A stretch of 64,000 bases of DNA from the IMG/VR virus record IMGVR_UViG_2565956641_000003, positions 700-64,699 of that record; one strand, written 5' to 3'. Within the stretch, counting starts at the first letter, position 1. Each line of letters starts with the position of its first letter. Positions 11,868 to 28,172 of the stretch are shown in pieces. Source of the DNA: a virus. Lineage: Duplodnaviria > Caudoviricetes. Under the pieces are notes generated by a model, which saw only the letters and a list, made by a program, of their open reading frames with translations, was not told the DNA's origin and did no database searches. The position numbers and the translations under genes were made by a program.

Positions 11868-11924
11868 TTTTAATGTACCTTCAAGTAAAAAGCCCCAACG
11901 ACTGGGGCATGAAGTTAAGTGGAT

Positions 11925-12269
11925 TTAAGGGTAAAAGACTTGGGTGAATGTGGTTGAGATTGCCCAGATCATTCCACCCACTTGACTAGGTGAATAGCTT
12001 GTATCTGTTTTAACTCTCACTTCACCATCTAAAGGAGCATTCCAGAGAAATGAATCAGAACCTTGATGTCGATCAAAAAAAGCTTTGATTTGAAGAATCT
12101 CATCTTTTGTTGATGTGCGTTTGTATGCCCATTCTCCCTTTCTATTGTTGATCCCTACTGAGATATTTTGTTCGTAGCCATCACCAAATTTCGAAGTCAA
12201 AATATTGAAGTTTTGTTTGCTTGAGTTCCCATCCAAATCACAAGGGAATGTAAATTTTTCATTGCTCAT
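11925..12269 (-). CDS. Distal tail protein M
   Basis: FGDGYEQ...GINN and FFDRHQG..SFLW motifs. Confidence 0.9.
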   Translation of the reverse strand: MSNEKFTFPCDLDGNSSKQNFNILTSKFGDGYEQNISVGINNRKGEWAYKRTSTKDEILQIKAFFDRHQGSDSFLWNAPLDGEVRVKTDTSYSPSQVGGMIWAISTTFTQVFYP

Positions 12270-12283
12270 AAATCGATTCCAAT

Positions 12284-12306
12284 AAAAAACCGCCTTACGG
12301 CGGTTA
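12284..12306 (-). terminator. Rho-independent terminator closing the accessory island
   Basis: AACCGC-CTTACG-GCGGTT hairpin followed by a T-run on the minus strand. Confidence 0.65.
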
Positions 12307-12320
12307 ATTTAAAAATAAAT

Positions 12321-12809
12321 TTATTCCAAAGTTACTTTTTCCTCAATAAGAAAATAGAGCGCTTTATTGTTAAAAGGAATGATGAAAAATCTTACAATTA
12401 CACCACTTGGAAGTGTCAGTTTAGCAAAATAAACATCCAGGTCTCTTACCACAACATCATCACTAAAGCACCATTCAAGATAGTCCATGATTCGAAAAGC
12501 GAGATACTTTTTACGATCTGCTGTATCAATTGTCATGCCTAGTGGCTTAGTTAATAAATAGTCTTGAATTAATGTTTCAATATTAGAATACTTAATTTTT
12601 TCGTATGAGAAATCTAATCCAACATAATTATCATAGTGTTTAAAAAAGTTGCCTTCTATAGTTAATGTCGGATCATTATCAACATCAAAAATATTGAGAT
12701 TTTTCTCTCTGATATCACCATCGATTTCTGCAAGACCATTTAAAAATCCTGAAAGAAAACTGATTGAAGTATCTATTAATTCCATTTTGCCCCCCTTTAA
12801 TGACATCAA
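12321..12809 (-). CDS. Hypothetical acidic protein, possible orphan immunity protein
   Basis: AT-rich ORF between two terminators, downstream of a toxin-immunity pair; start probably MELIDTS. Confidence 0.6.
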   Translation of the reverse strand: MMSLKGGKMELIDTSISFLSGFLNGLAEIDGDIREKNLNIFDVDNDPTLTIEGNFFKHYDNYVGLDFSYEKIKYSNIETLIQDYLLTKPLGMTIDTADRKKYLAFRIMDYLEWCFSDDVVVRDLDVYFAKLTLPSGVIVRFFIIPFNNKALYFLIEEKVTLE

Positions 12810-12919
12810 TATACGCCTTAATGAACTTGAAAGTAGGTAATAAATCCATTATTGGCTAAGAATTTAAAACTATTCTACGGCTAAAGAAACCGCCTATGGC
12901 GGTTCTTAGCATTTTATTT

Positions 12920-13321
12920 CTAGATGTTTTCTATTGGTGATTCATCATCAATAATATAAACACTCGTTGGCATCCGAATTTCGTACTTCCAAATATATGG
13001 ATAGAATCCAGGGCTTAACACTTCAAAATTACACTGCTCATCATTTTGAATATACATTTCAGTAAACAATGAAAAATCATTAGCACCACATCGGGCAAGT
13101 TCTGCAATATTGTTAATTATAAAATCTAAATATGCTTTTTCATAAGCACCATAACTTACATCATGATAATCAATAAACTCATTTGGATGTACAAATGAAA
13201 TGCTATTAGGAAATTCATCCTGATAGAGAAATGTTTTTAACTCGTTAGAGTTTAATCTTTCAATGCAGCTTTTAGCATTAAAGTTTTCTCCTGAAATATC
13301 AAACGTGATTCTAGCTTTCAT
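12920..13321 (-). CDS. Putative immunity protein for 13321-14370
   Basis: Acidic 133 aa; TAATG translational coupling to the toxin stop. Confidence 0.6.
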   Translation of the reverse strand: MKARITFDISGENFNAKSCIERLNSNELKTFLYQDEFPNSISFVHPNEFIDYHDVSYGAYEKAYLDFIINNIAELARCGANDFSLFTEMYIQNDEQCNFEVLSPGFYPYIWKYEIRMPTSVYIIDDESPIENI

Positions 13322-14370
13322 TACAAAAATTTCTCCAAATTGATCAAGATCATTTCTTTCGACTTATTACCTTTTATAAAAATTTCTCCCGTTTTAGGGT
13401 CTTTATAAAAGTCAAAATTATTCGAACCTCTTAATTCTTTGCTATATGTTTTAACAATTTTTTTCTTCAATGGTGTATTGTGCCAGTTTTTATTGCCAAC
13501 TAATTCACCAATCTGCTTTTCATTCATTTTTTTTGACTGTTTACCATCATTTACAGGCTTTTCGTCATCAGGATCAGGATTATTTGGGTCTGCATTAGTC
13601 GAATTGTCTTCGAACTGCTGAACAATCGGTTTAGCTTTTTCTGCATCGTTCTGAGCTTCATTTAAGATATCTTGAGCTGCTGCAACTGTTGCTACTTGTG
13701 CATCAGTATTGCCTGCTTGAGCGTTATCAATAACTTTTTGAGAGACTGTGTCGAATGGGAGGCTTTTATCATTTAATTTACTAGGATCATAATTCGGATT
13801 TGCAATTTTCTGGATATAAACTGGTGCAACCCAATTAGGGTAGTTTTTATAAATAACATCACAAGCTACGACATTATTTTGAAGGTTACAACCACGATTA
13901 CCTGTAATTTCCCCCCAACCATTATAATTCCCATTATTCCAATGAGCTGTATAAGATTTCAGAATAGATTCATAATTGTTTGATTTCCATTCATTGTCAG
14001 AATCGAATTTTTCATAATAGTAAAATTCATCTGAATTTGAAATGGAATCCGTTTTTTCTTTATATTTAATCTGATTATTCGCTGGGTCCATCACCCAATC
14101 GATACCATCCAACAGCTCATTTACTGCTACTGTCAGTGCAACTCCTGCCACACCACCACGAAGAATTTTTGAGACTTGGGAAGCATTGGGGACAATTGAG
14201 GCATTTGAAATTTTAGCAACACCTCCTACATTTTTTGTGGCATTAACTAAACCGGTTGCACCGACTGGTGTTGGATTTCCTACATTCCAACCATTAAGCG
14301 TTACGGCGCTTGCTAACCCTGAGCTCAGGGCTAAACAAATTCCCGATAACAAAGCTAAACTCTTTTTCAT
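13321..14370 (-). CDS. Secreted polymorphic toxin candidate 1 (Sec signal, shared TspB-like region, Ntox33-like C-terminus)
   Basis: Signal peptide ending ASA; blocks shared with 24074-25192; PNNPDPDD linker; basic tip WH..LKK...FDFYKDPKTGEIFI. Confidence 0.7.
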   Translation of the reverse strand: MKKSLALLSGICLALSSGLASAVTLNGWNVGNPTPVGATGLVNATKNVGGVAKISNASIVPNASQVSKILRGGVAGVALTVAVNELLDGIDWVMDPANNQIKYKEKTDSISNSDEFYYYEKFDSDNEWKSNNYESILKSYTAHWNNGNYNGWGEITGNRGCNLQNNVVACDVIYKNYPNWVAPVYIQKIANPNYDPSKLNDKSLPFDTVSQKVIDNAQAGNTDAQVATVAAAQDILNEAQNDAEKAKPIVQQFEDNSTNADPNNPDPDDEKPVNDGKQSKKMNEKQIGELVGNKNWHNTPLKKKIVKTYSKELRGSNNFDFYKDPKTGEIFIKGNKSKEMILINLEKFL

Positions 14371-14557
14371 TCTGTTTCCTTTTCTTTAGGCATAAAAAAA
14401 GACAGCCGAATGACTGTCTTGTGTTTTGAGATATTACTTTTTAAGTAATATTCCTCGGTAAAATTCTTTTAGGTAAATAGGGCTGCGGCATTTTTAGTGC
14501 AATAAAAACCCACTCGAGTGAGTGGGTTTAGTTTTCTAAATTATGTAAAACTATACT

Positions 14558-15205
14558 TTAACCTTCTTTAGCAGAACCTAGAGGAAGGTGAAAATCTTCA
14601 GTCATTTTAATCGGATAAGGCTTGCCATTAATATTTAAGGGCTTAAATCTTGCTTTATCTTTAAATTCTTTCAGTACGTAATTATCTAAATTATTTAATC
14701 CGCTACTTTTCGTGATCTTGGCTTTAGTTATTTTGCCGCTATCATCGGCTTCTACATATATACTTAATGATCTGCTTTCACCCTTTAATTCAGATTTTTT
14801 TGGAACAATATTTGGGAAAAATGCATATTTAGGGATTCTGGAAACTGAAAATTCAAAAGGTAGTTTTGTGCGTAATGGATAATTTGTATTTACATCCCAT
14901 TCATTCCATGCTTTGAGTTTTGATCCTTTCACAGCTCTTAATGCTAAGCGGTCTAATTCATCAACTCCGCTACTTTTGATTACTTCAGCTTTATGAACTC
15001 TACCATACTCATTAGTTTCTAAATAGATTAATAAATCTCTGTCGTAACCCTTTAATATTTCATTTTTAATAATAATTTTTGGTGGTATTATCCATTTCAT
15101 TAACATTCCACTAACTGGGTCTCTCTGTACTTCTCGAACCTTAGAATCTGCTCCAAAACAAAAACTGGAAACCAATAAGCAGAAAATTATAAATATGCTT
15201 TTCAT
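14558..15205 (-). CDS. Exported protein with two tandem TonB C-terminal domains
   Basis: Cleavable signal; twice the pattern G...A.(V/I).KSSG...LD; ends FKPLNINGKP. Confidence 0.8.
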   Translation of the reverse strand: MKSIFIIFCLLVSSFCFGADSKVREVQRDPVSGMLMKWIIPPKIIIKNEILKGYDRDLLIYLETNEYGRVHKAEVIKSSGVDELDRLALRAVKGSKLKAWNEWDVNTNYPLRTKLPFEFSVSRIPKYAFFPNIVPKKSELKGESRSLSIYVEADDSGKITKAKITKSSGLNNLDNYVLKEFKDKARFKPLNINGKPYPIKMTEDFHLPLGSAKEG

Positions 15206-15279
15206 GATATATCTCTTATATATTTAGTCCAAGATACTAATTTTTATGCCAAAAAGAAACCTCCCGAGGGAGGTTTGAT

Positions 15280-15999
15280 TTATCTTTTATCCAGAATAAG
15301 ATTAAAAGAGTTTTGATGTAGATCTTCCATATCTTGATCCCAAGCATTTATAGATTCAAGATGATGCTTGATTTCTTGATAATCGCTACTTGAATGTAAT
15401 GTGCTTGTTAAAAACGCAGAATATGCTTTATCTTCCTGGCATGATAATAATAAATTGGTCACTGAATCCTTTGTATCATCAATATTTGCAAGGTTTAAGG
15501 CTAATTTTGACAATTGCCGATTAACCTCATTGCAAGCTAAAAATCTAGGAAGTACAACGCGATCATCATCATTCAAGAAAAGTTTGGTAATAGTTGCCTT
15601 GCCCTTTTCATCTTTACCATAAAGCCTAAATGACTCTTGACAAAGGTGTGCTTTGGGCTCATCAACATATGGATTAACTATTGGGAATTTCTCAACATCT
15701 AATGTCCATTTTTTTCTATTACAACGACCACATGAAGGTAGTAAATTTTCCCAGTCAACAACGTTATCAGGATATGAGTCTTTATCTTTAAAATGTTCTA
15801 CCTGCATATATGAATCTTCAATTTGCAACTTGCATTCACAGTAGGCACATTTGTTTGATGAACTTAAAAGTAGTGGATTACCAATGCTCTCATCTTTCCA
15901 CACTACTTTAGTTTTGTCTTTTTTAAATCTTTCCGTCAATTCATGAACTTTTTCCACTGAAAGATATTCAGGCTTTTCACCTCTTTGCAACTTGATCAT
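15280..15999 (-). CDS. ptuB: HNH endonuclease, Septu PtuB-like
   Basis: CAYCE, VEHFKDK, WENLLPSCGRCN and VNPY.DEP..HL motifs. Confidence 0.75.
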   Translation of the reverse strand: MIKLQRGEKPEYLSVEKVHELTERFKKDKTKVVWKDESIGNPLLLSSSNKCAYCECKLQIEDSYMQVEHFKDKDSYPDNVVDWENLLPSCGRCNRKKWTLDVEKFPIVNPYVDEPKAHLCQESFRLYGKDEKGKATITKLFLNDDDRVVLPRFLACNEVNRQLSKLALNLANIDDTKDSVTNLLLSCQEDKAYSAFLTSTLHSSSDYQEIKHHLESINAWDQDMEDLHQNSFNLILDKR

Positions 16000-16002
16000 G
16001 GA

Positions 16003-17256
16003 TTATTCTCCAAGACTATCTAGCTGCATTTTAAAAACTGGTCGTAGTGGATATTGAGGATGCAACATCTTATCAAGTTCATGGTAAGCCTTTTTTGCAT
16101 CATCTTTATTCTGTTCATCGAGAGCCTTATCAAACCTAGCTTTTATTTCATTATATTTTTTAGTCCGTAAATCTGGCATTCCCATCACATCTTCAAGAAT
16201 CTCCTCGATTGTCCAACCTTGGTATCCATATTCAGATTCAGGTAATTCACGTCTTTCAACTACTCCATTTTTACGCTCTAAAGCAATTACTTCACCTTTG
16301 ATCGCAGTTTGTACTACATGAGGACTATGCGTAGTTATGAAAAATTGAGCATTGGGGAAAACTTCTTTAAGAATTGTGCAAATGCGACCTTGCCATTCAG
16401 GATGAAGATGTAATTCTACTTCGTCTATTAAAATAATCCCATTAAAAAGTTTATGACTTGTAGTAACGTAAATCGCTCTCTCAGAAAGTTCTCTAAAAAT
16501 ATTAAGAATTATAAATAAAATTGATTTAAAACCAGATGATAAATATTCAAAGTATATATCTCCAGTCGGAGTACTAACAATAATTTCATTATTTTTTAAT
16601 GATTTATATTTGATACCACTATCCAATACTGAAAAAGATTTTTTAAGTTCCTCAATATTTTCTAAATCACATAAATCTAATGCATTAGGACTTGTACTAA
16701 GTAATAATTGAGATACTAACCATCCTTTTAAATCTTCGCCATCAATTCCATTTACTAAACTCTTTAGTCGTTTTTGTAATTTTTTTTCACTAAAGCTAAT
16801 CGAATCTAAAAAACGATAATCAAATACCCTATTAACCTTGAGATAAATGACGTTAAGTAATTCTGTAAAAATTGTTGGTTCAGAAGATATTGAAGAATGA
16901 CGGTGATTGGATGGCTCATACTCATTAATGCTTTTAATTAAAACATTCTCAAATGCGTCGGTTTCTAATTCAATGTTACCTTTTGTAGAACCAACACTTT
17001 TATTTACAACACTTTTAGGATCATACTCTGAGAATACATAAACTATCGAATCAAGAATATTTGTTTTACCAACACCATTTGCTCCACAAATAATATTCAT
17101 TCGTTCATTGAGATTTTCTAATTTTAAATGAGATACTCCCCCTACATCTTTTATTTCTAATGATTTAACTTTCATTGTATCTAAGCCATTGTTGTTTGAT
17201 GAGTTCATCATACATTCAATCGAAATTTTTCCAAGCTTGTTTTGAGTCTGATTCAT
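16003..17256 (-). CDS. ptuA: ABC/AAA ATPase, Septu PtuA-like
   Basis: GANGVGKT, LSSG, ILIDEVELHLHPEWQ, TTHSP; start may be MKVKSLEI. Confidence 0.78.
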   Translation of the reverse strand: MNQTQNKLGKISIECMMNSSNNNGLDTMKVKSLEIKDVGGVSHLKLENLNERMNIICGANGVGKTNILDSIVYVFSEYDPKSVVNKSVGSTKGNIELETDAFENVLIKSINEYEPSNHRHSSISSEPTIFTELLNVIYLKVNRVFDYRFLDSISFSEKKLQKRLKSLVNGIDGEDLKGWLVSQLLLSTSPNALDLCDLENIEELKKSFSVLDSGIKYKSLKNNEIIVSTPTGDIYFEYLSSGFKSILFIILNIFRELSERAIYVTTSHKLFNGIILIDEVELHLHPEWQGRICTILKEVFPNAQFFITTHSPHVVQTAIKGEVIALERKNGVVERRELPESEYGYQGWTIEEILEDVMGMPDLRTKKYNEIKARFDKALDEQNKDDAKKAYHELDKMLHPQYPLRPVFKMQLDSLGE

Positions 17257-17296
17257 AGCTTTATTAAACCTTTAATTGGGGTTAAAATTTATCTAT

Positions 17297-17359
17297 GTCT
17301 CTTTTGAACAAAGCTGATATAAAAAACCCCAATAGTTCGTAGCTACTGGGGTTTTGTTT
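17297..17359. repeat. 63-bp hairpin-containing direct repeat, copy 1
   Basis: GTCTCTTTTGaACAAAGCTGATAT...AAAACCCCAATAGTTCGTAGCTACTGGGGTTTTGTTT; near-identical to 25266-25329. Confidence 0.9.
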
Positions 17360-17397
17360 GAGAGGTAAAAACCTTCCTGAAGTAGGTTATTGTCAAT

Positions 17398-18189
17398 TTA
17401 TTCTGGCAAATCAATAGATTCATGAAATTTTTTAATTTTATAAACAGCAGGTTTATCTTTTATTGTTTCAACATATACATCAACAACATAAGCTTTTTCA
17501 TAGATTTGATCTTCACCATGAATCATTTCATATTGAATTTCATCACTATCGAATAGTATTTTAACCTCTTTATCTGAAATACTTTCAATAATCCCTTTAT
17601 AGCCTTTTCGATTATCTGACCGAGTTTGAGTCCAATATAAAACTACTTGCTTATGCAAACCAAGAATAGGTTCTTTTAATTTCTCTATTTCTTTTGTTGC
17701 TTTATTTTGAATTGCATTTGCTTCTGTACTATTAATATTTATTGTAATACTGCCAGTGTTATTTGAAGCATCTAATTACAAAATAGATCCAACATCTTTT
17801 GCTATTGGTTCCACAAACTTTGAAACCCTGCTAAGAGTTTGTTTGTCTAGATCAACAGGCTTTGAACCACTTCCTTTCAGATATTCAATACATGATTTAA
17901 AATGTTTAGTAAAATCAATTACTGTGTTTGCGTGTTCCGCAAAAGGCATCAATGCAGGCGCTAATGCTACTAACTCAGTGATAATTGACCCAGGTCTAAT
18001 CTCCTTGATATATAGTTTGATTTCATCAGAAACAAGATGATTTTGAGATTCAGCAATAAAATCAGAATATTCAGCACCTAAACTTATCATGCTTTGAGCA
18101 AAATCAATTAAATCAACTGGCTGTTTATTTTTCATATTGATAGTTAGCATAGCCTTATCATCACTAGCCAATAATTCTATATTATCCAC
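17398..18189 (-). pseudogene. 263-codon hypothetical gene broken by one in-frame TAA
   Basis: ORFs 17776-18189 and 17398-17658 are in the same frame and the gap is open after the TAA at 17776-17778. Confidence 0.85.
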
Positions 18190-18360
18190 TACTACCCCTT
18201 ATTAATTAAATTTCAGCGACATGAGATGACGCATAAATTATGTATTTTTGAGATAGTATGTTAATAAACTTTTGATTGGTCAAATAAAAAATCAACCAAA
18301 CCTGAATAAAAACAAAACCCACTTTGCGTGGGTTATATACTAGAACTACAAAAGATTATC

Positions 18361-18672
18361 TTAAGTGCTTGAAGCTTTAACCCTTATTCTGTTGAAAAAT
18401 TCCTCAGAAACACGATCAGGATACTTAATCTGGACCCGAGCTCCTTCTCCAATTTTTTGAGCTAGCTTACCTAATTCCACTGCATGTCTATCTGACCAAT
18501 CATTATTTAATGCCCATTCATTTATTTCATCTTGATCTAAAGTTTCGCCTTGATTCTTTAACCACTTAAATACTGATTTCTTGATAGAATCATCTAATGG
18601 ATGTGTAGCACCTGCGGAAACATTCACGCGTATATTAAGTGCTTCTAAAGCTGCTTGTACTAATGGAGTCAT
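18361..18672 (-). CDS. DUF1889/YoaC-like small protein
   Basis: VNVS.G..HPLD...W...NDW....A..L...A pattern. Confidence 0.6.
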   Translation of the reverse strand: MTPLVQAALEALNIRVNVSAGATHPLDDSIKKSVFKWLKNQGETLDQDEINEWALNNDWSDRHAVELGKLAQKIGEGARVQIKYPDRVSEEFFNRIRVKASST

Positions 18673-18681
18673 ACTTTCTTC

Positions 18682-19014
18682 CTACAACAAAGTAAAAATC
18701 TCACCATTCAACATAGTGAAATCATTGTTTATATTTGAAATTGATTTTAAAACTCCAATCTCAAGTCCAACTAAATAATGATTTTTAAAAATCCATGATT
18801 TAGCTTCTTGCCTAATGTATTCTTCTTCCCTACATTCAAACAATAACTTGGCTTGTTGTATCTGCCCCATCTGGTTTTTAACTTTCACAGAGAGATAGCA
18901 AGGAAATATATCCAATATTTTCAATTTTTTACTCTCAAAATTGAGAAACAACATCAATAAAAACGAACTCCTGAGAGTACTTAGTTGGTATACCAACAAA
19001 TGTAAACTCAACAT
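18682..19014 (-). CDS. Hypothetical protein (true start probably internal, near 18930)
   Basis: Fills the gap in a tightly packed run of minus-strand ORFs. Confidence 0.45.
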   Translation of the reverse strand: MLSLHLLVYQLSTLRSSFLLMLFLNFESKKLKILDIFPCYLSVKVKNQMGQIQQAKLLFECREEEYIRQEAKSWIFKNHYLVGLEIGVLKSISNINNDFTMLNGEIFTLL

Positions 19015-19186
19015 TTCTATTTAGTTGATGACGCTGAGTTTCTGCATGTAAAGATGAAATATGACTAATGTCAAAAAATTTAACTATATTACCATTACCT
19101 ATAATCTCCTCTTCCTCATTGGCAATCAATACTTGCAACTCAGGATCAAATTTTTGTAATTTGATTATTAAATCTTTAACTTTCAT
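18935..19186 (-). CDS. Hypothetical protein
   Basis: MKVKDLIIKLQKFDPELQV phage-type N-terminus; ATGA overlap with upstream gene. Confidence 0.65.
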   Translation of the reverse strand: MKVKDLIIKLQKFDPELQVLIANEEEEIIGNGNIVKFFDISHISSLHAETQRHQLNRNVEFTFVGIPTKYSQEFVFIDVVSQF

Positions 19187-19440
19187 TTTCTAATCTCTGA
19201 ATAAATTATTGTGTATTTTTTCCTAGATACTGGATGAATAAATGAATTGTTACCCCATAAGAATTTTATAGGTTTATCGTAGTCGTCTAAACAAATTAAA
19301 TCATAAGCCCAAATATCTATAGCTTTTTGTTTAGATTCTTCAGGACGATAATGTGAGAAAAATTGGAGTGCAATTTTATGACCTTCAGTATCTATCGCCT
19401 GTAGAGAACAACTGTATCGATTTTTAAAATCTTCGTACAT
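19183..19440 (-). CDS. Hypothetical protein
   Basis: AAGGAG RBS; packed operon. Confidence 0.65.
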   Translation of the reverse strand: MYEDFKNRYSCSLQAIDTEGHKIALQFFSHYRPEESKQKAIDIWAYDLICLDDYDKPIKFLWGNNSFIHPVSRKKYTIIYSEIRK

Positions 19441-19450
19441 TTATTACTCC

Positions 19451-19681
19451 TTACAAATATTTGCAAAATTCAATTTGTGTAAAAAAAGGATGACTACAAA
19501 AATTCTTAGTCGCAAAATACATAACTATCAAAAAAATAGTTCCTGCAATTAGCCCAAAATATCCTGTTATCTTCCAATTCACCACATCATCATTTCCACA
19601 ACGTCCACAATAGGAATAGTAGTGTTTAATGCGAGCACCGCAGTTTGGGCATTGTTTATGATTTATTAAATTATTACCCAT
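19451..19681 (-). CDS. Zinc-ribbon single-TM protein
   Basis: CPNCG...YCGRCG followed by a TM helix. Confidence 0.7.
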   Translation of the reverse strand: MGNNLINHKQCPNCGARIKHYYSYCGRCGNDDVVNWKITGYFGLIAGTIFLIVMYFATKNFCSHPFFTQIEFCKYL

Positions 19682-19682
19682 T

Positions 19683-20207
19683 TTATCCCACCCCTAAAAT
19701 TGATCTGTAAAGATCATCAGCTTGTTTTGCAACTAAAAAAAGCACAGCCATTGTTGGTGTCAGTAAAAAAATTATCGTGAGGATAAATTCTACGAATAAT
19801 ATTTTTTCACTTTTAAATACTAAGTTTAATGTAGTACATAAATGTCTGGACCATACTTTGAAGCTGTTTGGATTCTCACATGGTTTAAAACCATCTATGT
19901 TATTAATTTTATTTTGCATGTGATCACTACTTTTATTAGTAAAATCAATCATATTGCTTATGACCAAATAAAAAAACAGACAAGTTAAGGCTAATGTAGA
20001 ACACCAAAAAACTAGTGTTTTTCCCGAAAAATCTAGTTCAAATGATCGCACAGTAAATAGCACCCACACACTACCAACTAATACTTGTGGTGTTAAGTTC
20101 CTCATATACTCTAGGACTGCTTTACTCCCTTCAGAAGTAAATAAAAAAAGCTCTTTATTGCTCTTTTTTTTATCATTATCTTTTTCGTTCATAGAGATTA
20201 TCTCCAT
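19683..20207 (-). CDS. Membrane protein (about three TM segments)
   Basis: Hydrophobic segments; YMRNLTPQ motif. Confidence 0.7.
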   Translation of the reverse strand: MEIISMNEKDNDKKKSNKELFLFTSEGSKAVLEYMRNLTPQVLVGSVWVLFTVRSFELDFSGKTLVFWCSTLALTCLFFYLVISNMIDFTNKSSDHMQNKINNIDGFKPCENPNSFKVWSRHLCTTLNLVFKSEKILFVEFILTIIFLLTPTMAVLFLVAKQADDLYRSILGVG

Positions 20208-20255
20208 TGTTTATATTTGAGGTGCATAAGCATAAAATGCTTATGCACCAGATCA

Positions 20256-20408
20256 TTAAGTTGCACATGGAACTAAGAAAGCCCATGCTTCATACCCATA
20301 CTCACGCGCATCTAGCACTTTGCCAGAGTTGCCTCGTACTTTACGGAATCTACAAAAGATCCATTTCATGCCTTTCGGCGGTTCTTGAGTACCTAACTTC
20401 TTAAGCAC
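20256..20408 (-). CDS. 50-aa basic protein downstream of the ImmA/IrrE peptidase
   Basis: GTG start after GGAGGTGA; WIFCRFRKVRGNSGKVLDAREYGYEAWAFLVP. Confidence 0.65.
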   Translation of the reverse strand: MLKKLGTQEPPKGMKWIFCRFRKVRGNSGKVLDAREYGYEAWAFLVPCAT

Positions 20409-20564
20409 ATAGCTCACCTCCTCTCCCAAGGAGATTTGAAAAGCTAACTTAAATGATCTACAATGAAGTTCCTTACGCTTTATAGTAGTCATCTGAGTTA
20501 GCCGAATAGCCCTTGGGTGTACTATCCGAAACTGATATGAGAGATAACTTTCATATCAGTTTTT

Positions 20565-21104
20565 TCATTTTAAAGAATTAAATTTGTTTTTAGCTGCCAA
20601 GTAGCCTACTTGGAATTGAGCCTGAATCTGTTCAATTGTTAACCCAATACAAATCTCTGTCGGCATTAAGAATTCAGCTGCAAACATATCGGCTTGCCAT
20701 TCTGAGTCTTCAAAATGTTTATGAGTAGGCAACGATCCTCGTGCAAAAGCAACGCCCTCATGAAGAAACAAATGTCCTAATTCATGTGCAGCAGTAAAAC
20801 GCGCACGATTATGCATTGGATTGGTAGAATCACATAAAGCGTCATAGACATCTTCACGTAGAATAACTAAAGATGCATCTGGGTTTGTCCACCCCTCAAC
20901 ATCAGGCATCTCGTGAATTTCTCTAACTTCAAATGTCACCTTATATTGATGCAATGTATGTTCAAGAATTCTCACCAAATCAATGGCATCAGCAGGTAAT
21001 AAATTGAAAAACTTATCTCGTACTGTGCGAGCTTTATCCTTGATGCTTTGTGCGCTCAGGGGGCGAACTTTATACCCCCTAGGCACTGAACAACCAGATG
21101 ACAT
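20565..21104 (-). CDS. ImmA/IrrE-family Zn metallopeptidase
   Basis: RARFTAAHELGHLFLH ... EWQADMFAAEFLMP. Confidence 0.92.
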   Translation of the reverse strand: MSSGCSVPRGYKVRPLSAQSIKDKARTVRDKFFNLLPADAIDLVRILEHTLHQYKVTFEVREIHEMPDVEGWTNPDASLVILREDVYDALCDSTNPMHNRARFTAAHELGHLFLHEGVAFARGSLPTHKHFEDSEWQADMFAAEFLMPTEICIGLTIEQIQAQFQVGYLAAKNKFNSLK

Positions 21105-21107
21105 ATA

Positions 21108-21464
21108 TTAATTCCCCTCTAAGATTTTTCTCAGTTCAGCTAAATCAACCGACTGTGTTTGAATACGTCGTGCAAACATTAATGCAAGTTCCGCTTCTTC
21201 AGCATCATGCGTTTTGATTGTTACGTTTTCTACACTTTGGCTTGCAGCATGAGTTAACAGCTTTTCTTCATCATTCGTCAGTCCTAGAGCATTTGTAATT
21301 TTTGTAATTAATTCAGCACTTATTGGCTTTTTACCTGTTTCAACAGCTGATAAGAAAGCTGAACTAACACCAATAGAAGTCGCAAGTTCATTAAGATTGC
21401 TATCGTAATCAATCCGAAGCTTTCTAATTGCTTTTCCAAATTCTGTTAGTTTAGACATTTTCAA
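21108..21464 (-). CDS. Xre-family HTH regulator
   Basis: FGKAIRKLR...ELATSIGVSSAFLSAVETGKK. Confidence 0.9.
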   Translation of the reverse strand: MKMSKLTEFGKAIRKLRIDYDSNLNELATSIGVSSAFLSAVETGKKPISAELITKITNALGLTNDEEKLLTHAASQSVENVTIKTHDAEEAELALMFARRIQTQSVDLAELRKILEGN

Positions 21465-21769
21465 AACCCTATTGCGTCACTAATTCATTATTGAATAAGT
21501 GAATACTTTTTACAGTATTAGATCATGATAAACAAATTTTAAATTTTATTCAACACCAAGGATAAAATAATTAACCTTTAGGTTAATTTAAATTAGACCT
21601 TAAAACTATTGCTTTACTCAACCAATATTTTTATTCATATGCATTTTTAATAAATTTATAGTGATTGCTCTATAAATCGAGAGGTGTTTCTAAAATGGAA
21701 GTCAATTTAACCAAAGAAGATAGGCTTTATTTTCATTGAATTTAAAAAGCACCCTAGGGTGCTTTATAT

Positions 21770-22351
21770 TTATAAACCGCTAGTATCTTTATCACCCTTT
21801 TCTTTAAAACAGCTTGGCGAGTTTGATAGTTCATACGATAGTGTAACTTGTCCAGAATTTGGACCATTAGCACGCGCCTTAAGCATTATATTTTTAACTC
21901 CATTCTCTTCATTTGGCTCCCATGCTGCTACCAACGTTCGCTCCTCTTTATACAACCCCATTGTCCAGTCATTAGGTTCTTTCCAGATACTTCCAGACCT
22001 TAAAAAATTATAATCCCCAACAGGAGTACCATATTTTTCTGTAAGAGATTCTTTAATGGATGCAAACTCATCCTTAATACCATCCCCATAAACATTTGTT
22101 GTGATTGGCTTTCCCCAACCAAGTACTTTGCACAATCCATTTTGTGGTGTAATCAGCATTAGATAATCTTTAAAGGCTTTGTATGGTTTTGGAACATTTT
22201 TAAAAGAGTAATAATTCTTATCCAAAACCTCTGCAACACCACTAACCTTTTTGACTTCACTTAAGGACATCCCTGTTTTCAATCCGAAAGGTGCTTCAGC
22301 ATTTGCAAAACCTGATAAAGCCAGCAAACTAACTAAAACTATTCTTCTCAT
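21770..22351 (-). CDS. Exported hypothetical protein
   Basis: Signal peptide ending ANA; APFGLKTGMS and LTEKYG.P motifs. Confidence 0.75.
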   Translation of the reverse strand: MRRIVLVSLLALSGFANAEAPFGLKTGMSLSEVKKVSGVAEVLDKNYYSFKNVPKPYKAFKDYLMLITPQNGLCKVLGWGKPITTNVYGDGIKDEFASIKESLTEKYGTPVGDYNFLRSGSIWKEPNDWTMGLYKEERTLVAAWEPNEENGVKNIMLKARANGPNSGQVTLSYELSNSPSCFKEKGDKDTSGL

Positions 22352-22521
22352 AATGTAACTACTTTGTTAATTCTCGTAACTATATTAACAGAAGTAATTT
22401 GAATAAACATTAGGCGAAAGTAGGAAAACCACTGTATGTCAGTTTGACACAATAGAATACTTTCTAGTAATGAACAGAACTCTGAATTCACAGTAGGGCT
22501 TTAAAAGTGTAAATCAGCAAA

Positions 22522-22590
22522 AAAGTGTGATTTTTTGCCCTGCCCCTAACTCAAGTTTTAAGAGTTTAGGGCAAGGAGTGATTTGGTTGA
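22522..22590 (-). pseudogene. Second o-spanin-like fragment, homologous to 1109-1160
   Basis: Shared AAGTGTGAT..TTTGCCCTGCCC..ACTCAAGTTTTAAGAGTTT; frame NQITPCPKLLKLELG. Confidence 0.55.
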
Positions 22591-22628
22591 TTCTATGATA
22601 AGTTATTCAAAGTTACGCAAAAGTCGTA

Positions 22629-23237
22629 TTATATTAATTTTGCTGACTTTTTACTTTCCCCACCTTTAAAGAAGGCTAACTCTAATGCTCTGTATCCTGA
22701 GATCTTATATCCAACTTTGTCTACCATTAATTTATAAAACTTGGCAAAAGTATCTTCAGCTTTCAAATTTTCAAGAAGGTCTAAATATTGAAGGTAGATT
22801 TTAGGATCCTGTAATCTATAGTTATGTGGTTCTTTACGACTTAAAAATCTAAAAACCCTACTATCCCAAATCGCATATTGTTCTGGATTAATGAAATGTA
22901 ATAATTTTGATGTTCCTACAAGGGAGCTATTAAATGAATCTTTTAAGATCAAAAGCTCTTTAGCAGTGATGATATTACCTTTTTTAATTCTGTTAAAAAT
23001 TACAACTAGATCATCGGCATTTTTTAGATCAATTTCTTTTAAAATCGTTGGCATCCATGAATAAGTAAAACTTATTCCTATAACAATATGATCTAATTCA
23101 ATAGTATCTATTTTCTTAAAGAAATTAAGAAAATAGGAGTAGGCTAAAAGATAATTTTCGTTATCTTTATCAAAATTATTAGCAATATCAATAATTTCAT
23201 TAAAAATTTTTTCATTATTTTTTAATGTTATAGACAC
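22629..23237 (-). CDS. HhH DNA-glycosylase-like protein (DUF6308-like)
   Basis: SLVGTSKLLHFINPEQYAIWDSRV ... YRALELAFF. Confidence 0.55.
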   Translation of the reverse strand: MSITLKNNEKIFNEIIDIANNFDKDNENYLLAYSYFLNFFKKIDTIELDHIVIGISFTYSWMPTILKEIDLKNADDLVVIFNRIKKGNIITAKELLILKDSFNSSLVGTSKLLHFINPEQYAIWDSRVFRFLSRKEPHNYRLQDPKIYLQYLDLLENLKAEDTFAKFYKLMVDKVGYKISGYRALELAFFKGGESKKSAKLI

Positions 23238-23409
23238 TTTTATCTACCTGAATATAAATTTGTGTAAGTAGTTTAACCTTTTTAAATAACTAAATTAACA
23301 TAATGGGCGTTAAGTCAGCCCTCACTCAGAGGGCCATGCTTCAATTAATCTTTGAAAAATTGAGTTACCCCTATCTATACATCATAGAGGTGTCTTGAGT
23401 AGTAGAATT

Positions 23410-24072
23410 CTAAGCATTATTAATTTCCAATAACTTAATATTATCTATAGACTGATTAATATTCGCAAATTCAACATCATTGATTCGGTTAGCAACCTCA
23501 TCGTACTCACCTTCGACAATTGAGATATGAGTTAAGAAATCAATCAATAATTCAATTTGTCTTTTGCTAAAATAAGCTAATAATTCTGAAATCAACCTAT
23601 AACTATTGGCCCTTTTCAAACGAGATGACCATGATGAAAAGCTATTTGAAAACAATATATGAGGATCTTTTACATTATTATTGAAATCAGCGTCATTTAA
23701 AACACAATTCATAATTGCAGGAGTGTAAAATAAATATGCTTGAGGTGCTAAAAAACTAAATCCTGTAGCGCAACGTTCCAGATAAACACAAGGTATTTCA
23801 AATGGATCATTATAACGATTCAACATTCTTCTTTTTTCTTTAATTGCATCAATCGCTTCTTGACGATCCTCTGGAAGCCAACTACCGGTATCAATAAAAT
23901 GGATTTCTTGATTAATCCATTCTTCCTCAGTTAAATTTAAGTCAGTATGCGGTTTATCGAAATGCCAATAGCTAGTATCTGCATAGTCTTCTTCTGGAAG
24001 AGTATAGGCGTCACCTAAAGTTACATTTTTAAATTCCAGCTTTATTTGTTGTAATAAATTTTCAGTATTCAT
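23410..24072 (-). CDS. Putative immunity protein (DUF6714-like) for 24074-25192
   Basis: IKLEFKNVTLG...FSFLAPQAYLFYTPAIM pattern; starts 1 nt after the toxin stop. Confidence 0.65.
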   Translation of the reverse strand: MNTENLLQQIKLEFKNVTLGDAYTLPEEDYADTSYWHFDKPHTDLNLTEEEWINQEIHFIDTGSWLPEDRQEAIDAIKEKRRMLNRYNDPFEIPCVYLERCATGFSFLAPQAYLFYTPAIMNCVLNDADFNNNVKDPHILFSNSFSSWSSRLKRANSYRLISELLAYFSKRQIELLIDFLTHISIVEGEYDEVANRINDVEFANINQSIDNIKLLEINNA

Positions 24073-24073
24073 G

Positions 24074-25192
24074 TTATTGACCTAATAATCCTAAATATTC
24101 ATTACACTCAGCAGCTACTTTTTTTGCCTCTATTGCTTCCAGAATATGGTTTTGATGTGGAGGAGTCCAGCAAGCATTCTCTTCGTCTCGGGCTTTTCCT
24201 AATTCAGAATAAGCTGCATATCTTGTTAGTAATTGACTTGAATTCATATTTTTTTCACACTTTTTCAAACCACCAACAACTTCCTTGGCGTAAACAACAC
24301 GACCTCTTATAGTAGGGCGTGATCCAATTGGGCATATCCAACATTGACCATATATATTACGTGATTCACCATTTGGACATTTTTCAGAATTCCTCTCCAG
24401 TTCATCCTCTATTTCTTTAGCTTTTGTAGCATCATTCTCCGCTTCACTAACTATTGCTTGGGCTGCTGCTAATGTAACAGCTTGAGCATCCGTATTTCCC
24501 GATTGTGCGTTGTTGATGATTTCTTGGGAGACTACGTCGAGTGGGAGGGTTTTTTCTTCTGTTTTTTTAATTTTTATAATATCAAAACCAAAATCCACAG
24601 CATAAACAGGAGAATATGTATAGATCCAACAAGTTCCATAGGTTCCATTTGAAGAAATAGTTATATTTCTAAGTGATGAATCTGGGTATGCTTCAGATTT
24701 AACTTTATTTAAGCGCCATGAACAATACTCTTCCGCTGTATCAAATAATGAATCACCAAGCCCTTTGTATTGTATTATACCTTCAATTTCGGTTTTGAAT
24801 TTAACACTATTGTTCTCTGGGTCCATCACCCAATCGATGCCATCCAAAAGCTCATTGACCGCAAATGTAAGAGCTGCACCACCGAGACCTGCTCGAAGTA
24901 TTTTTGAAACTTGCGAAACATTTGGAGTGATTAATGCTTTAGATTCGGTAGAAACCCCACCTATAATTCTATTTGCATTTAGAACTGTTGAAGCACCCTC
25001 AGAAGCATAACCATTAACTACCCACTGTCCAAAAGATGCTACTGGAGCACTCATTGTTCTTGCAGATGCAGCCTTATAATAGTTAAAAGATGCTGGTGAA
25101 CTTTGTAATGTCGATTGAGATGTATCGTTTTGGTCTGATTCACCACAACCAGTCAAACCCAAAAGAACTGCTAAAAATAATAATTTTTTCAT
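24074..25192 (-). CDS. Lipoprotein polymorphic toxin candidate 2 (shared TspB-like region, Ntox16-like C-terminus)
   Basis: Lipobox LTGC; blocks shared with 13321-14370; Cys-rich helical tip AR....ACW...H..H......AAEC. Confidence 0.7.
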   Translation of the reverse strand: MKKLLFLAVLLGLTGCGESDQNDTSQSTLQSSPASFNYYKAASARTMSAPVASFGQWVVNGYASEGASTVLNANRIIGGVSTESKALITPNVSQVSKILRAGLGGAALTFAVNELLDGIDWVMDPENNSVKFKTEIEGIIQYKGLGDSLFDTAEEYCSWRLNKVKSEAYPDSSLRNITISSNGTYGTCWIYTYSPVYAVDFGFDIIKIKKTEEKTLPLDVVSQEIINNAQSGNTDAQAVTLAAAQAIVSEAENDATKAKEIEDELERNSEKCPNGESRNIYGQCWICPIGSRPTIRGRVVYAKEVVGGLKKCEKNMNSSQLLTRYAAYSELGKARDEENACWTPPHQNHILEAIEAKKVAAECNEYLGLLGQ

Positions 25193-25265
25193 TTATTTCC
25201 CCTTATTTTCAGATAGTTTATTTGACTTGTTGTTGAAAAACTATCTTAAGTTAAAGTTTAGTAAC

Positions 25266-25329
25266 GTCTCTTTTGCACAAAGCTGATATGAAAAACCCCC
25301 AATAGTTCGTAGCTACTGGGGTTTTGTTT
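25266..25329. repeat. Hairpin-containing direct repeat, copy 2
   Basis: About three differences from 17297-17359. Confidence 0.9.
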
Positions 25330-25388
25330 AGGGGGAAGATATTGTTGAGGGAGGTTTAGTTTGTTCGGTTTTTATTAGATTTAAAGTA

Positions 25389-25643
25389 TTACTCTACAGT
25401 CAATCCAAAGTTCTTGGTGATTACATTTAAAACTGTTCCAGATGGTTCTATAGAGAATGAACCTACTTTAAATCCTTCGATTTTAAAAGTTCCTTGCACT
25501 TCCGCACCTGATGGTGGATTAGCTAACCCCCTAGCGATAAATTTTCCAGTATTGGTTACGGTATTTACTTCCACTTCAACATCCGTCGTTTTAAATGTTC
25601 TTTTACTGGTAATCATGCTGTTTTCCTCACTATTATCAGCCAA
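25389..25643 (-). CDS. Hypothetical protein
   Basis: GAGG RBS before MITSKR. Confidence 0.5.
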   Translation of the reverse strand: MADNSEENSMITSKRTFKTTDVEVEVNTVTNTGKFIARGLANPPSGAEVQGTFKIEGFKVGSFSIEPSGTVLNVITKNFGLTVE

Positions 25644-25800
25644 CTTATTATAAGCAATAGTTTTTGGTTATGTCCAAAAGTTCATCGCCTAAATTAGACA
25701 TATTATTTCCTAACTTCAATCAAGTGTTTTAAATTGCTCAAACGCCATTAATTTTGATTATCGTCTACACGATTTTCTAAGCTGCCTATTCAGCAGTGAA

Positions 25801-26259
25801 CTACCACTCATTATCTGACTTGGTTATAGGTTTGTCAGAGGTGTTATTTTCAGCTAAAACTGTTTTTTTTAGTTTTTCTAAAAAATCATCTGCAGTTTTA
25901 CTCATTTCTTCACTTGCATCGTTTTTGTTTTTTCGAGCCTCTTCAAAAGCCTTAGGGTGTCTTAACTCCATAATAGCGAAAAACTCTTTCTCTTTACCCA
26001 CAGCAATAGCGGAAAACAATCCTCTCATTGAATCCAGCAACCCTGTAACATCATTCAGTCGCTCCTTAAGAAGAATCACTTCTTGATCACTTGTCTTTCC
26101 TTGGTTTTCAAAACTACTTTCCAAGCGAGCAATAACATCCGCATTTATTGAACGCCCTAAATTAGATGCTGATTCCGTAATCTTATCTTTTAATTCAATT
26201 GGTAATCTGATTTTTAACTGTGGATCTTCTCTACTCATGTCTATAACCATATACCGCAA
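25801..26259 (-). CDS. Arc/Mnt-family ribbon-helix-helix repressor (Mnt-like)
   Basis: MSREDPQLKIRLP.ELKDKI...A...GRSINADVIARLESSF. Confidence 0.88.
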   Translation of the reverse strand: MRYMVIDMSREDPQLKIRLPIELKDKITESASNLGRSINADVIARLESSFENQGKTSDQEVILLKERLNDVTGLLDSMRGLFSAIAVGKEKEFFAIMELRHPKAFEEARKNKNDASEEMSKTADDFLEKLKKTVLAENNTSDKPITKSDNEW

Positions 26260-26278
26260 AACCGTAATGCTTATTGTA

Positions 26279-26351
26279 TACCACCGTGGGGTATTGACAA
26301 TAGAACCACCGTGGTTTAAATTAATTTCAATTAAACCACGGTGGTTTAATT
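26279..26351. promoter_or_regulatory. Divergent promoter region with three CCAC(C/G)GTGG operators
   Basis: Sites at 26281, 26306 and 26336; TTGACA 26294-26299, 17 bp, TAAATT. Confidence 0.75.
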
Positions 26352-26373
26352 AAAGTTCATGTAAGGAGTAAAT

Positions 26374-26538
26374 ATGATTTCTGAAACAACACAACCTTCA
26401 CAAATGAAAATACGAGTCTTAGATTCAGATGATCATGCTTGGCTTAAGCAACATGCTGAAAACACCGACAGATCAATTAATTACATCGTTAACCAAGCTA
26501 TAAAACTATATAAGCAAATAAAAGGAACAGAAGCATGA
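26374..26538 (+). CDS. Unannotated 54-aa Arc-like RHH protein
   Basis: AAGGAG RBS; QMKIRV.....HAWLKQHAENTDRSINYIVNQAI; ATGA overlap with the antirepressor gene. Confidence 0.8.
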   Translation: MISETTQPSQMKIRVLDSDDHAWLKQHAENTDRSINYIVNQAIKLYKQIKGTEA

Positions 26539-27302
26539 GCAATCTATCTATTTTTAACTTCAATCAAAATGAAGTGCGTACCATTGTAAGAGATGGTGGT
26601 GATATTTGGTTTGTGGCATCAGATGTAGCTAACGCTCTAGATTATCGTGATGCTAGTAATATGATTCGTAATTTAGATAGCGATGAATCTGCTACTCACA
26701 ATCTGAGTATCAGATCTGAGAACGGCATAGAGCAAATTCGTGAAGTTGCAATCATCAATGAATCAGGCCTTTATTCTGCAACCTTAAAAAGCCGAAAACC
26801 CGAAGCTAAGTCTTTTAAAAAATGGATCACTTCTGTAGTTCTACCAAGCATTCGTAAAAATGGTGGTTATATTGCTGGTCAAGAGAATGACGATCCTGAG
26901 TTAATAATAGCTAAGGCTTTGCAAGTTGCTAACAATGTGATTATTCGAAAGACTCAAGAATTACAGCAAGCGCTAACTGAACGTGATCATGCAATCGAAA
27001 CAAAAGCTCATATCAGTGACAAGAAAACTGCAACAGCAATGGCTACTGCATCCGTTAAGAGTAGACAAGCAGAAGCACTTAAAGAACAGTTGGGCGAATC
27101 TAAAAACTACGCATCAATTAAAGCTGTAGAAATTAAGACTGGTGGAAAATATGGCTGGCACAAATTGAAAAAATGGTGTGAAGCTAAGGGTAAGAAAATT
27201 AAAGATATTGCTGATCCAAATTTTGGAACTGTAAAGATTTATCCAAGGGAAGCTTGGGAAGCTGTATACGGGATAAAACTTAATTCTATTTTTCAGGCAT
27301 AA
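26535..27302 (+). CDS. BRO-N domain antirepressor
   Basis: WFVASDVA.AL, INESGLY and SRKPEAKSFKKWITSVVLPSIRKNGGY motifs. Confidence 0.9.
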   Translation: MSNLSIFNFNQNEVRTIVRDGGDIWFVASDVANALDYRDASNMIRNLDSDESATHNLSIRSENGIEQIREVAIINESGLYSATLKSRKPEAKSFKKWITSVVLPSIRKNGGYIAGQENDDPELIIAKALQVANNVIIRKTQELQQALTERDHAIETKAHISDKKTATAMATASVKSRQAEALKEQLGESKNYASIKAVEIKTGGKYGWHKLKKWCEAKGKKIKDIADPNFGTVKIYPREAWEAVYGIKLNSIFQA

Positions 27303-27303
27303 C

Positions 27304-27666
27304 ATGAACAATATTTCAGACACAAAAAAACCTTGTCCGACTACCAATCTAAACAAGGTTTATCTGTGCCCCAAAGGACTACAAACTATGCACACTATAG
27401 CATCACTCGAACCAGAACCACAAGAACCTAAGAAATTTAGGAAAGATAATATGCAAGCGGACTTACACACTACTGCTACAAAACTCGATGAGATGGCAAA
27501 TTTATTCTCCATTATCAAATCTTTGATTGAAAACAAAGGGAAGTTCACAGATCAACAAGTTAAGCAACTTGCTGAAACAGGCATGTATATTTGCGAAGAC
27601 TGGTCAGATCAAGTCACAAGAATGGAAACACTCTTAACACAAGAACATAAACTTTATTATCATTGA
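27304..27666 (+). CDS. Hypothetical protein (start uncertain)
   Basis: ORF directly after the antirepressor. Confidence 0.55.
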   Translation: MNNISDTKKPCPTTNLNKVYLCPKGLQTMHTIASLEPEPQEPKKFRKDNMQADLHTTATKLDEMANLFSIIKSLIENKGKFTDQQVKQLAETGMYICEDWSDQVTRMETLLTQEHKLYYH

Positions 27667-27699
27667 TCGAGTTAAAAAAACAGGGCTTTTGTCCTGTTT

Positions 27700-28110: not shown

Positions 28111-28172
28111 AAATCCTTAATTTATTTTGAATAAATCTAACATTTGGAAAAAAGAAAAGCTACAAATGCAGC

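Follow-up and report, generated by a model that had tools for sequence, protein, structure and literature searches.

The window analysed here is a stretch of 64,000 nucleotides (positions 700 to 64,699 of the IMG/VR record IMGVR_UViG_2565956641_000003), nearly all of a 64,699-base provirus record, and carries on its minus strand a gene (13321..14370) for a protein of 349 amino acids (aa) in which a signal peptide, an inovirus-type head, a linker and a predicted toxin tail follow one another. With a probability of about 0.9, this protein is a polymorphic toxin with a head derived from inoviruses (filamentous phages) and with a cognate immunity gene. It can be classed as a polymorphic toxin, or bacteriocin, whose carrier is new and derived from a phage, and it resembles MafB proteins in plan and colicins and S-type pyocins in modular logic. 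Varied tails on one head, a tail that recurs on unrelated scaffolds and a matching downstream gene are the features by which polymorphic toxins are recognised in the relevant part of Zhang et al. 2012 (PMC3482391), and all three are found here.

Head of the toxin and its inovirus relatives

The translation begins with a Sec signal peptide (aa 1-22, 14305..14370) that ends in LASA and is followed by VTLNGW, the cleavage site being predicted from the sequence. The head, which forms the front two thirds of the protein, contains two conserved blocks marked by invariant or near-invariant columns in alignments A1 and A2: block 1 (aa 23-105, 14056..14304) has the consensus GW...GA...PNASQVSKILRGG.AG.AL.VAV.ELL.G.DWV.DPANN and block 2 (aa 200-258, 13597..13773) has the consensus LP.DTVSQKVI.NA..GNTDAQVAT.AAAQDI..EA..D..KA.PI..Q.E. 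Between the blocks lies a hypervariable central domain (aa 106-199, 13774..14055), recognised by the clustering of centres and likely to be the specificity part, and after them a linker rich in proline, aspartate and asparagine (aa 259-270, 13561..13596) leads to the putative C-terminal toxin domain of 79 aa (aa 271-349, 13324..13560); all of these parts are on the minus strand. An AlphaFold 2 (AF2) model built from 117 sequences is confident for aa 21-105, folded as strands and two helices with a predicted local distance difference test score (pLDDT) of about 85-96 in block 1, and for aa 200-258, folded as three helices with a pLDDT of about 95. The signal-peptide region appears as an N-terminal helix at low confidence, and pLDDT falls below 50 at aa 264-276 and over most of the central domain, the poorly modelled middle (aa 111-191) being also the part that varies in sequence. 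As a whole, the protein matches no Pfam family (E<=0.01, where E is the expectation value) and no NCBIfam family. The first-pass annotation of this DNA had singled out 13600..14300, which corresponds to toxin residues ~24-257, and had quoted two motif strings and a linker, DPNNPDPDD; both strings are present, in the two conserved family blocks (aa ~25-105 and ~200-258), and the linker is found at aa 261-269.

The toxin matches the first two thirds of two PHROG profiles of 388-433 positions (PHROG 28180, E 5.7e-40; PHROG 7568, E 4.9e-33), both of unknown function. A search of 5.8 billion protein clusters returned 147 relatives of the head, those with named sources being almost all from Acinetobacter, and the relatives are of two kinds. 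The first kind, of 300-400 aa, combines a common head with unrelated tails; the second kind, of about 400-480 aa and found on contigs of 1.5-7.6 kb, combines the head with a linker rich in alanine, threonine, glutamate and proline, a cysteine-containing stretch and a hydrophobic C-terminal anchor. The best single case of the second kind is encoded at an inovirus locus (L033:2139-3461), with 43% identity over toxin aa 1-257 (BLASTP, E 6e-49), and is followed by an ORF (open reading frame) of 91 aa and then by Zot (1.4e-20); another inovirus protein (P0041) also has 43% identity over aa 1-257 (BLASTP, E 1e-50). Similarity to both stops at toxin aa ~257, and the phage proteins extend ~170-190 aa farther, through the linker and the cysteine-containing domain to an anchor of TspB type, with a conserved stretch (LEFP.FC.WAP.VCEAAQ) in the C-terminal part that has no counterpart in the toxin. 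Among deposited phages, tblastn matched orf3 of Acinetobacter phage M02 (E 5e-11), which is located between the coat gene and DUF2523/Zot, and a 'tspb protein' of Dulem virus 65 (E 7e-4).

The genomic position of the long relatives identifies what kind of protein they are. The 103 related loci that were fetched (25 genomic and 78 on viral contigs) were sorted by script into 62 with anchored long forms, 31 with toxin-type proteins and 10 with truncated or unclear ones. An ORF of 80-110 aa directly follows the long form in 54 of the 62 loci, and Zot (PF05707, above the Pfam cut-off) is the next large ORF in all 50 of the long-form loci that have an ORF of at least 350 aa within 1.5 kb downstream. 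The first-pass claim that the scaffold resembles g3p-position proteins of Acinetobacter inoviruses is borne out by these matches, and the similarity to zot-adjacent proteins whose absence had been named beforehand as its refutation was found. The similarity is well above what chance would give, and the head of the toxin is homologous to the g3p-position proteins encoded beside zot in Acinetobacter inoviruses.

The label 'TspB-like', applied to the toxin in the first pass, was put on the wrong part: the TspB signature itself belongs to the phage anchor and is absent from the toxin. NF041109, the NCBIfam model of the TspB C-terminal domain, was found in the last ~50 aa of all 13 long forms scanned (11 above the cut-off) and gave no hit at E<=1 in either toxin of the window (the second is described below). 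Neisseria TspB (Pfam PF05616) does not match the toxin, which has no hydrophobic C-terminus and no anchor domain of TspB type. Because the TspB signature lies in the anchor that the toxin has lost, the toxin shares the head of the phage proteins and not their TspB part. The accompanying description of the relatives, which were said to end in a proline-rich linker and a membrane anchor, was correct about the anchor; the linker is rich in alanine, threonine and glutamate as well as proline, and leads to a C-terminal domain of ~150 aa rather than to an anchor alone. If the inovirus attachment-protein family is defined by its anchor and by its genome position, the toxin is not a member, having neither. 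Predicted structures independently support the kinship of the head: in the ESM Atlas, toxin aa 23-260 align at a template modelling (TM) score of 0.77 with a 422-aa cluster termed 'TspB C-terminal domain-related' (the Atlas feature score to a TspB cluster, just 0.80, amounts to no more than a lead to Neisseria TspB); in a Foldseek search of BFVD, the top four matches were unnamed viral proteins (E 3.5e-13 to 1.7e-7), and weak matches were obtained to an Inoviridae attachment protein (E 0.024) and to a predicted model of Pf3 G3P (E 0.065).

The central domains of 157 family members fall into 72 clusters, of which four mix toxin and phage forms. The centre of the window's toxin has just two similar counterparts, both in inovirus proteins (41% over 90 aa in P0041, 34% in the protein of locus L033), and resembles none of 96 other toxin centres. 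A relative that is 73% identical overall (P0003) has near-identical flanks and an unrelated centre, two others (P0009 and P0046) have a common centre with differing signals and tails, and across the family the type of signal, the centre and the tail assort independently. A hypervariable centre that shares types with phage attachment proteins is as expected for a part that meets diverse targets, and the central domain would set which strains are hit.

Predicted toxin tail and candidate immunity genes

A HMMER search of 1.84 billion representatives with the tail (aa 271-349) gave 85 hits, in 84 of which the matched domain ends no more than 12 aa from the C-terminus. Among the 51 longer tail carriers that were scanned against Pfam, 13 have MafB, PT-VENN, Fil_haemagg_2, RHS, PT-HINT or DUF6443 domains (the RHS hit, in P0136, being below the cut-off), 36 have no Pfam family, and two weak hits look unrelated; a MafB protein (P0128) bears the tail family of the window's toxin. 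Because it is C-terminal in 84 of 85 relatives and occurs on MafB, CdiA-type, RHS and PT-HINT proteins, the tail is, as far as its relatives indicate, an unnamed polymorphic-toxin domain, and the first-pass view that the protein ends in a domain of toxin type agrees with this result. Conserved in the tail family are a W-H pair, a lysine and the motifs G.tN.D and GNK; an AF2 model of the tail alone (pLDDT 89.4) consists of two helices and then three strands. Sister toxins bear other tails, Ntox16 included, with at least eight kinds of tail on the one conserved head.

Candidate relationships to named families stayed weak or unconfirmed. Arm-DNA-bind_1 (E 0.048), the sole hit of the tail in Pfam and NCBIfam, was taken as chance; in fold searches with the whole model and with the tail alone, the matches to colicin D (28 aligned columns, E about 5-6) and to a PVC baseplate chain (Z 4.4-4.5) were too weak for use; and two Ntox33 clusters, at 0.93 and 0.90, come first in the Atlas feature search with the tail, a lead for which Pfam gives no confirmation, PF15533 matching none of 35 members of the tail family even at E<=10.

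The gene directly downstream of the toxin gene (12920..13321, minus strand) has a start that overlaps the toxin stop codon and encodes 133 aa with no signal peptide. In a comparison of 28 distinct toxin loci (33 less five duplicates), in which toxins, by their last 75 residues, and the directly downstream ORFs were clustered separately, eight tail clusters paired one-to-one with eight downstream-ORF clusters in all 28. Because the type of tail and the type of downstream ORF match one-to-one, 12920..13321 is the likely cognate immunity gene. It has just six homolog clusters, and at one related locus (L032) a homolog of 56% identity lies directly after a toxin with the same tail; no named Pfam or NCBIfam family was usable for either of the two immunity candidates at this site. 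The other candidate (12321..12809, minus strand, 162 aa) is 77% identical to the direct follower of a toxin with another type of tail (at locus L005), and the simplest reading is that of an orphan immunity gene matched to that different tail. Because a signal peptide is absent from the immunity protein, the tail would act in the cytoplasm.

The family profile also matches a second protein in the provirus record, a paralog of 372 aa (24074..25192, minus strand) whose signal is that of a lipoprotein (LTGC), whose tail is Ntox16-like and whose head is 41% identical to that of the first toxin (E 3e-41). The next gene (23410..24072, minus strand) encodes a DUF6714 protein (PF20461, E 6.2e-11) and is the likely immunity gene of this paralog: DUF6714 follows the Ntox16-like tail, the commonest type, in 16 of 16 loci, and looks like the immunity family for tails of Ntox16 type. 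The paralog itself has no Pfam hit. Its tail clusters with that of locus L088, which scores 23.7 bits against Ntox16 (PF15523, cut-off 25); a relative with a similar tail that lies outside this clustering (P0063) scores 28.7 bits. In the table of Zhang et al. 2012 (PMC3482391), the immunity pairing of Ntox16 is left blank.

Proposed mechanism and competing explanations

The whole mechanism proposed here, to which slightly better than even odds are given, is that of a Sec-exported, bacteriocin-like toxin that uses its phage-derived head for targeting and entry and is released by lysis. The head (aa 23-258) descends from the g3p-position attachment protein of Acinetobacter filamentous phages, with a central domain (aa ~106-199) drawn from the pool of the phage proteins' own centres, and where the phage protein has a domain that anchors it in the virion and membrane, the toxin has a short linker and then a toxin domain that can be exchanged (aa 271-349). 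Expression of the toxin would coincide with that of the late genes, and its release with lysis of the host by the prophage; the head, in the role that it has in the phage, would then bind a surface structure on a related cell (probably the type IV pilus, in line with other inoviruses) and would bring the attached toxin domain through the target envelope. The tail would act in the target cytoplasm, which it must reach because the immunity protein, supplied by the next gene, is cytoplasmic. Head-driven entry, specificity set by the centre and release by lysis are what we infer from the arrangement. The first-pass suggestion that an inovirus entry module had been repurposed for toxin delivery is supported as to descent and fusion, and the hypervariable centre fits it; the use of the module in delivery is still an interpretation.

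The proposed release by lysis can be set beside the genomic context of the related toxins, which was surveyed at 22 of 26 other distinct toxin loci. At eight loci the toxin gene adjoins a tape-measure or tube gene, as in the window, and at 11 of a further 14, examined with Pfam, phage genes are nearby, with a lysozyme within ~2 kb in seven of these 11; hence most of these toxins are carried by tailed prophages, in many cases in the company of late genes. In another prophage with a family toxin (L088:101-4870), genes for large polyvalent proteins (ART-PolyVal, LPD39) lie just upstream.

Several observations weigh against the mechanism or against the toxin assignment beneath it. The tail family has no Pfam family, and comparison of the tail model with solved structures gave a best Z of 4.4 and no Foldseek match at E<=0.001; because there is no recognisable catalytic fold or Pfam family, the toxicity of the tail is deduced from the company that it keeps. 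The central domain, on which specificity would depend, is poorly modelled by AF2, and the count of its clusters covers 157 of 198 sequences, the anchor patterns having missed 41. For the head, no solved structure was matched by Foldseek at E<=0.001, the best VIA-align Z was 4.5, Ff g3p was absent from the results, and the best match of the family profile to sequences in the PDB was to designed helical repeats (E 0.085). Because no solved structure resembles the head, nothing ties it to a fold that binds pili or TolA; the link to TolA made in the first pass, for which the precedent is that group A colicins and Ff phages use a common Tol route (a passage of PMC7391070), is thus supported by no result. 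As for the phages themselves, in the pertinent part of PMC11209303, on filamentous phages of Acinetobacter baumannii, CoaA is a presumed adhesin and pili are its presumed receptor. As for exit from the producer, the endolysin of the window is 11 kb from the toxin gene, and three of the 22 other loci examined have solely chromosomal neighbours.

The main rival, considered rather unlikely, is that the head acts only on the producer's side and that entry into the target relies on something else. In its favour, and against the proposed mechanism, is the lipobox found in 52 of 117 toxin-type relatives, the second paralog of the window among them: a lipobox implies a membrane-tethered protein, which is a poor fit to a diffusible bacteriocin and suggests surface display, vesicles or contact. 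A producer-side head would also accord with the presence of the toxin's tail on the MafB protein P0128, and with a chromosomal cassette on a contig of Acinetobacter bouvetii (L007:7986-13019) that lies between sbcCD and two T2SSE-family ATPase genes; these are read as pilT and pilU, the type IV pilus retraction motors, and their position may be coincidence. Against it stands the behaviour of the homologous N-terminal part of Ff g3p, which faces outward at the virion tip, serves in receptor binding and entry, and is dispensable for assembly. The role would be like that proposed for MafB-N: in the pertinent passages of Zhang et al. 2012 (PMC3482391), Sec-dependent polymorphic toxins carry behind the signal peptide a domain that is conserved and lineage-specific, for which surface anchoring is proposed, but MafB-N is there described as highly conserved, whereas the centre of the present head is hypervariable and has types in common with phage proteins.

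The other explanations are each far less probable than a producer-side head. That the protein is chiefly a decoy, a soluble or lipid-anchored periplasmic copy of the head that occupies the receptor or co-receptor of filamentous phages and protects the lysogen, with tail and immunity secondary, is improbable; periplasmic fragments of Ff g3p do make E. coli resistant to superinfection, and the surrounding island is rich in defence genes (a Septu pair, PtuA/PtuB, at 4.1e-152 and 1.3e-94, and a CapH/CapP-like pair), but the 28 of 28 pairings of tail and downstream ORF and the occurrence of the tail on MafB, CdiA-type and RHS toxins mark an offensive toxin and are more than a decoy would require; phage exclusion may be a side effect. 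The second suggestion of the first-pass annotation was that the toxin rides on particles of co-resident filamentous phages; in its favour are the head that the toxin has in common with a virion tip protein and the presence of inoviruses with this protein family in several Acinetobacter species. This is very unlikely because the toxin lacks the C-terminal domain and anchor that in Ff g3p insert and hold the protein in the virion: the phage protein's sequence past aa ~257 is absent altogether, the LEFP.FC.WAP.VCEAAQ stretch and the TspB-type anchor included. The provirus record, moreover, has no Zot match in its 64,699 bases, in accord with the earlier remark that no zot gene is nearby. The missing C-terminal third and the absence of inovirus neighbours might also be taken for signs of a decayed, functionless inovirus remnant, a notion that is scarcely credible for a gene with an intact frame and a proper signal peptide, with conserved blocks in 114 distinct toxin-type heads, with a C-terminus that is a separately conserved domain of 85 relatives, and with an immunity-type gene translationally coupled to it.

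A broader scenario that extends the proposed mechanism, a Sec-exported toxin with a targeting head, to the whole family is tentative, and is given clearly less credence than the mechanism itself. An inovirus head would have been captured once, without its anchor, and would have become a general carrier of polymorphic toxins; its centre would still trade types with inoviruses, phage and toxin would be rivals for one surface structure and would both exert selection on it, probably the type IV pilus that serves in competence and twitching, and tailed prophages would carry the toxins as late-gene cargo and release them at lysis. The outcome would be a large undescribed class of Acinetobacter protein antibiotics that enter by the route of filamentous phages. 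A single capture is favoured by a tree of the conserved blocks of 194 distinct heads, in which the 114 heads of toxin type group together in a single clade and the 80 of phage type lie outside it; the support value of that clade is low, at 0.57, and the tree has a midpoint root.

Several known systems can be compared with the toxin. Reportedly, and known to us by title alone, an artificial hybrid between f1's attachment protein and colicin E3 with changed receptor specificity was made in E. coli in 1988; judged by that title, it is the closest forerunner of this design and combined an attachment part and a killing part as the toxin does, the hybrid being hand-made and the toxin natural. Shiga-toxin-type prophage cargo is a comparable late-gene toxin, by gene position only. 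Colicins and S-type pyocins resemble the toxin in their modularity, in the independent assortment of targeting and killing parts and in a downstream gene for a cytoplasmic immunity protein, but no colicin or pyocin domain is found in the toxin by Pfam (the Atlas score to Pyocin_S, 0.77, is below the level of a lead), and export of the toxin is through Sec or in lipoprotein form, in contrast to release as a complex with the immunity protein, and there is no dedicated lysis gene. MafB of Neisseria is likewise a short, Sec-dependent toxin that has a genus-restricted N-terminal domain, swappable tails and a downstream immunity gene (MafI), and one member, P0128, carries the tail family of the toxin; in contrast, the toxin has no PF06255 match and no identified partner resembling MafA, and its head is phage-derived with a hypervariable centre. 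The inovirus g3p-position protein (annotated 'virulence factor TspB C-terminal domain-related protein', and CoaA in phages Af1, Af4 and AfK, in the corresponding part of PMC11209303) is like the toxin in its signal peptide and in the two blocks that flank a hypervariable centre, and differs in preceding an ORF of ~90 aa and Zot, whereas the toxin gene is in a tailed prophage. MuF toxins, which Zhang et al. 2012 (PMC3482391) list as a trafficking mode, are likewise carried by tailed prophages among late genes with plausible release by lysis, but are packaged in the phage head and have no signal peptide. APD1 and APD2 of the same paper are Amoebophilus prodomains, unrelated to the toxin family. 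No description of natural toxins of this build was found in the literature searched; TspB, inovirus, g3p and Acinetobacter are not mentioned in the text of Zhang et al. 2012, of which Additional File 1 could list such proteins.

If the proposed mechanism is correct, one kind of phage arms its host with the key of another, and a natural phage entry device has been reused as a toxin carrier, which is unreported from nature in the literature searched. The unstudied attachment proteins of Acinetobacter inoviruses would gain a testable function and a soluble receptor probe, the catalogue of polymorphic toxins would gain a trafficking module, a tail family and an immunity family, and tailed prophages would be shown to carry strain-specific weapons in the region of their tail genes. 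Acinetobacter includes hospital pathogens, for which narrow-spectrum protein antibiotics with exchangeable targeting parts are of practical interest for study; the toxin family is a large one, and it yields clear predictions that can be tested.

The prophage and its cargo island

The provirus is a siphophage prophage of lambda-like type with a low G+C content, and the sources of the close protein relatives of the toxin label them Acinetobacter bereziniae and A. guillouiae. Its tail module is on the minus strand, in the order tube (33574..34488), tape measure (28396..32286, TMP_3 at E 1.1e-57 with an SLT domain) and then genes of gpM, gpL, gpK, gpI and gpJ type that span 12269 down to 3372, the gpJ-type protein having 2002 aa. 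Between the tape-measure gene, its upstream border, and the minor tail protein gene of gpM type (11925..12269, PF05939, E 1.1e-23), its downstream border, is a cargo island of ~16 kb (12270..28395), an uncommonly large insert for this position in a tail module of lambda type. The gene for the 349-aa toxin belongs to the last toxin cassette of the island ahead of gpM. On the minus strand, a terminator-like hairpin (14399..14420, from a consensus scan and the sequence) lies 28 nucleotides upstream of the toxin start codon, and another (12288..12305, from the consensus scan), just past the orphan immunity gene, closes the cassette of toxin and immunity genes before gpM; no convincing promoter was seen between the two. 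The consensus scan found 11 terminator-like sites in 11800-15400, compared to 2.3 +/- 1.7 in shuffled sequences, and such hairpins delimit individual cassettes of the island. The neighbouring ORFs that were scanned are all of tailed-phage, defence or unknown type, in scans that included no family search aimed at rep or coat genes.

Directly upstream of the toxin gene is a gene (14558..15205, minus strand) for a protein of 215 aa that has two TonB C-terminal domains behind a hydrophobic, signal-peptide-like N-terminus and that could be a periplasmic TonB-box decoy that excludes phages or bacteriocins, or could be tied to the route of the toxin. As a constant companion of the toxin it was rejected: because it has homologs at just two other loci, where 5-7 kb separate them from the toxin (in L091 the homolog lies near the tape-measure gene, and in L021 the distance to the toxin is 5.6 kb), it is treated as separate cargo. 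Beside the toxin cassette, the prophage bears the Septu-type defence pair PtuA (16003..17256, PADLOC 4.1e-152) and PtuB (15280..15999, 1.3e-94), the latter an HNH nuclease, both on the minus strand. Farther into the island, genes for a helix-turn-helix protein (21108..21464, PADLOC 2.7e-9) and an M78 (IrrE-like) peptidase (20565..21104, 4.6e-16) form a pair on the minus strand that resembles the CapH/CapP regulators found in defence systems; downstream of it are ORFs without a family (19683..20207 and others), among which could be a regulated effector. Two minus-strand ORFs (17776..18189 and 17398..17658) match positions 2-136 and 178-260 of phrog_9226 (261 positions), respectively, and look like a single gene broken into two. 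Of the small ORFs of unknown function in the island, one encodes a DUF1889 protein (18361..18672, minus strand, E 2.6e-11).

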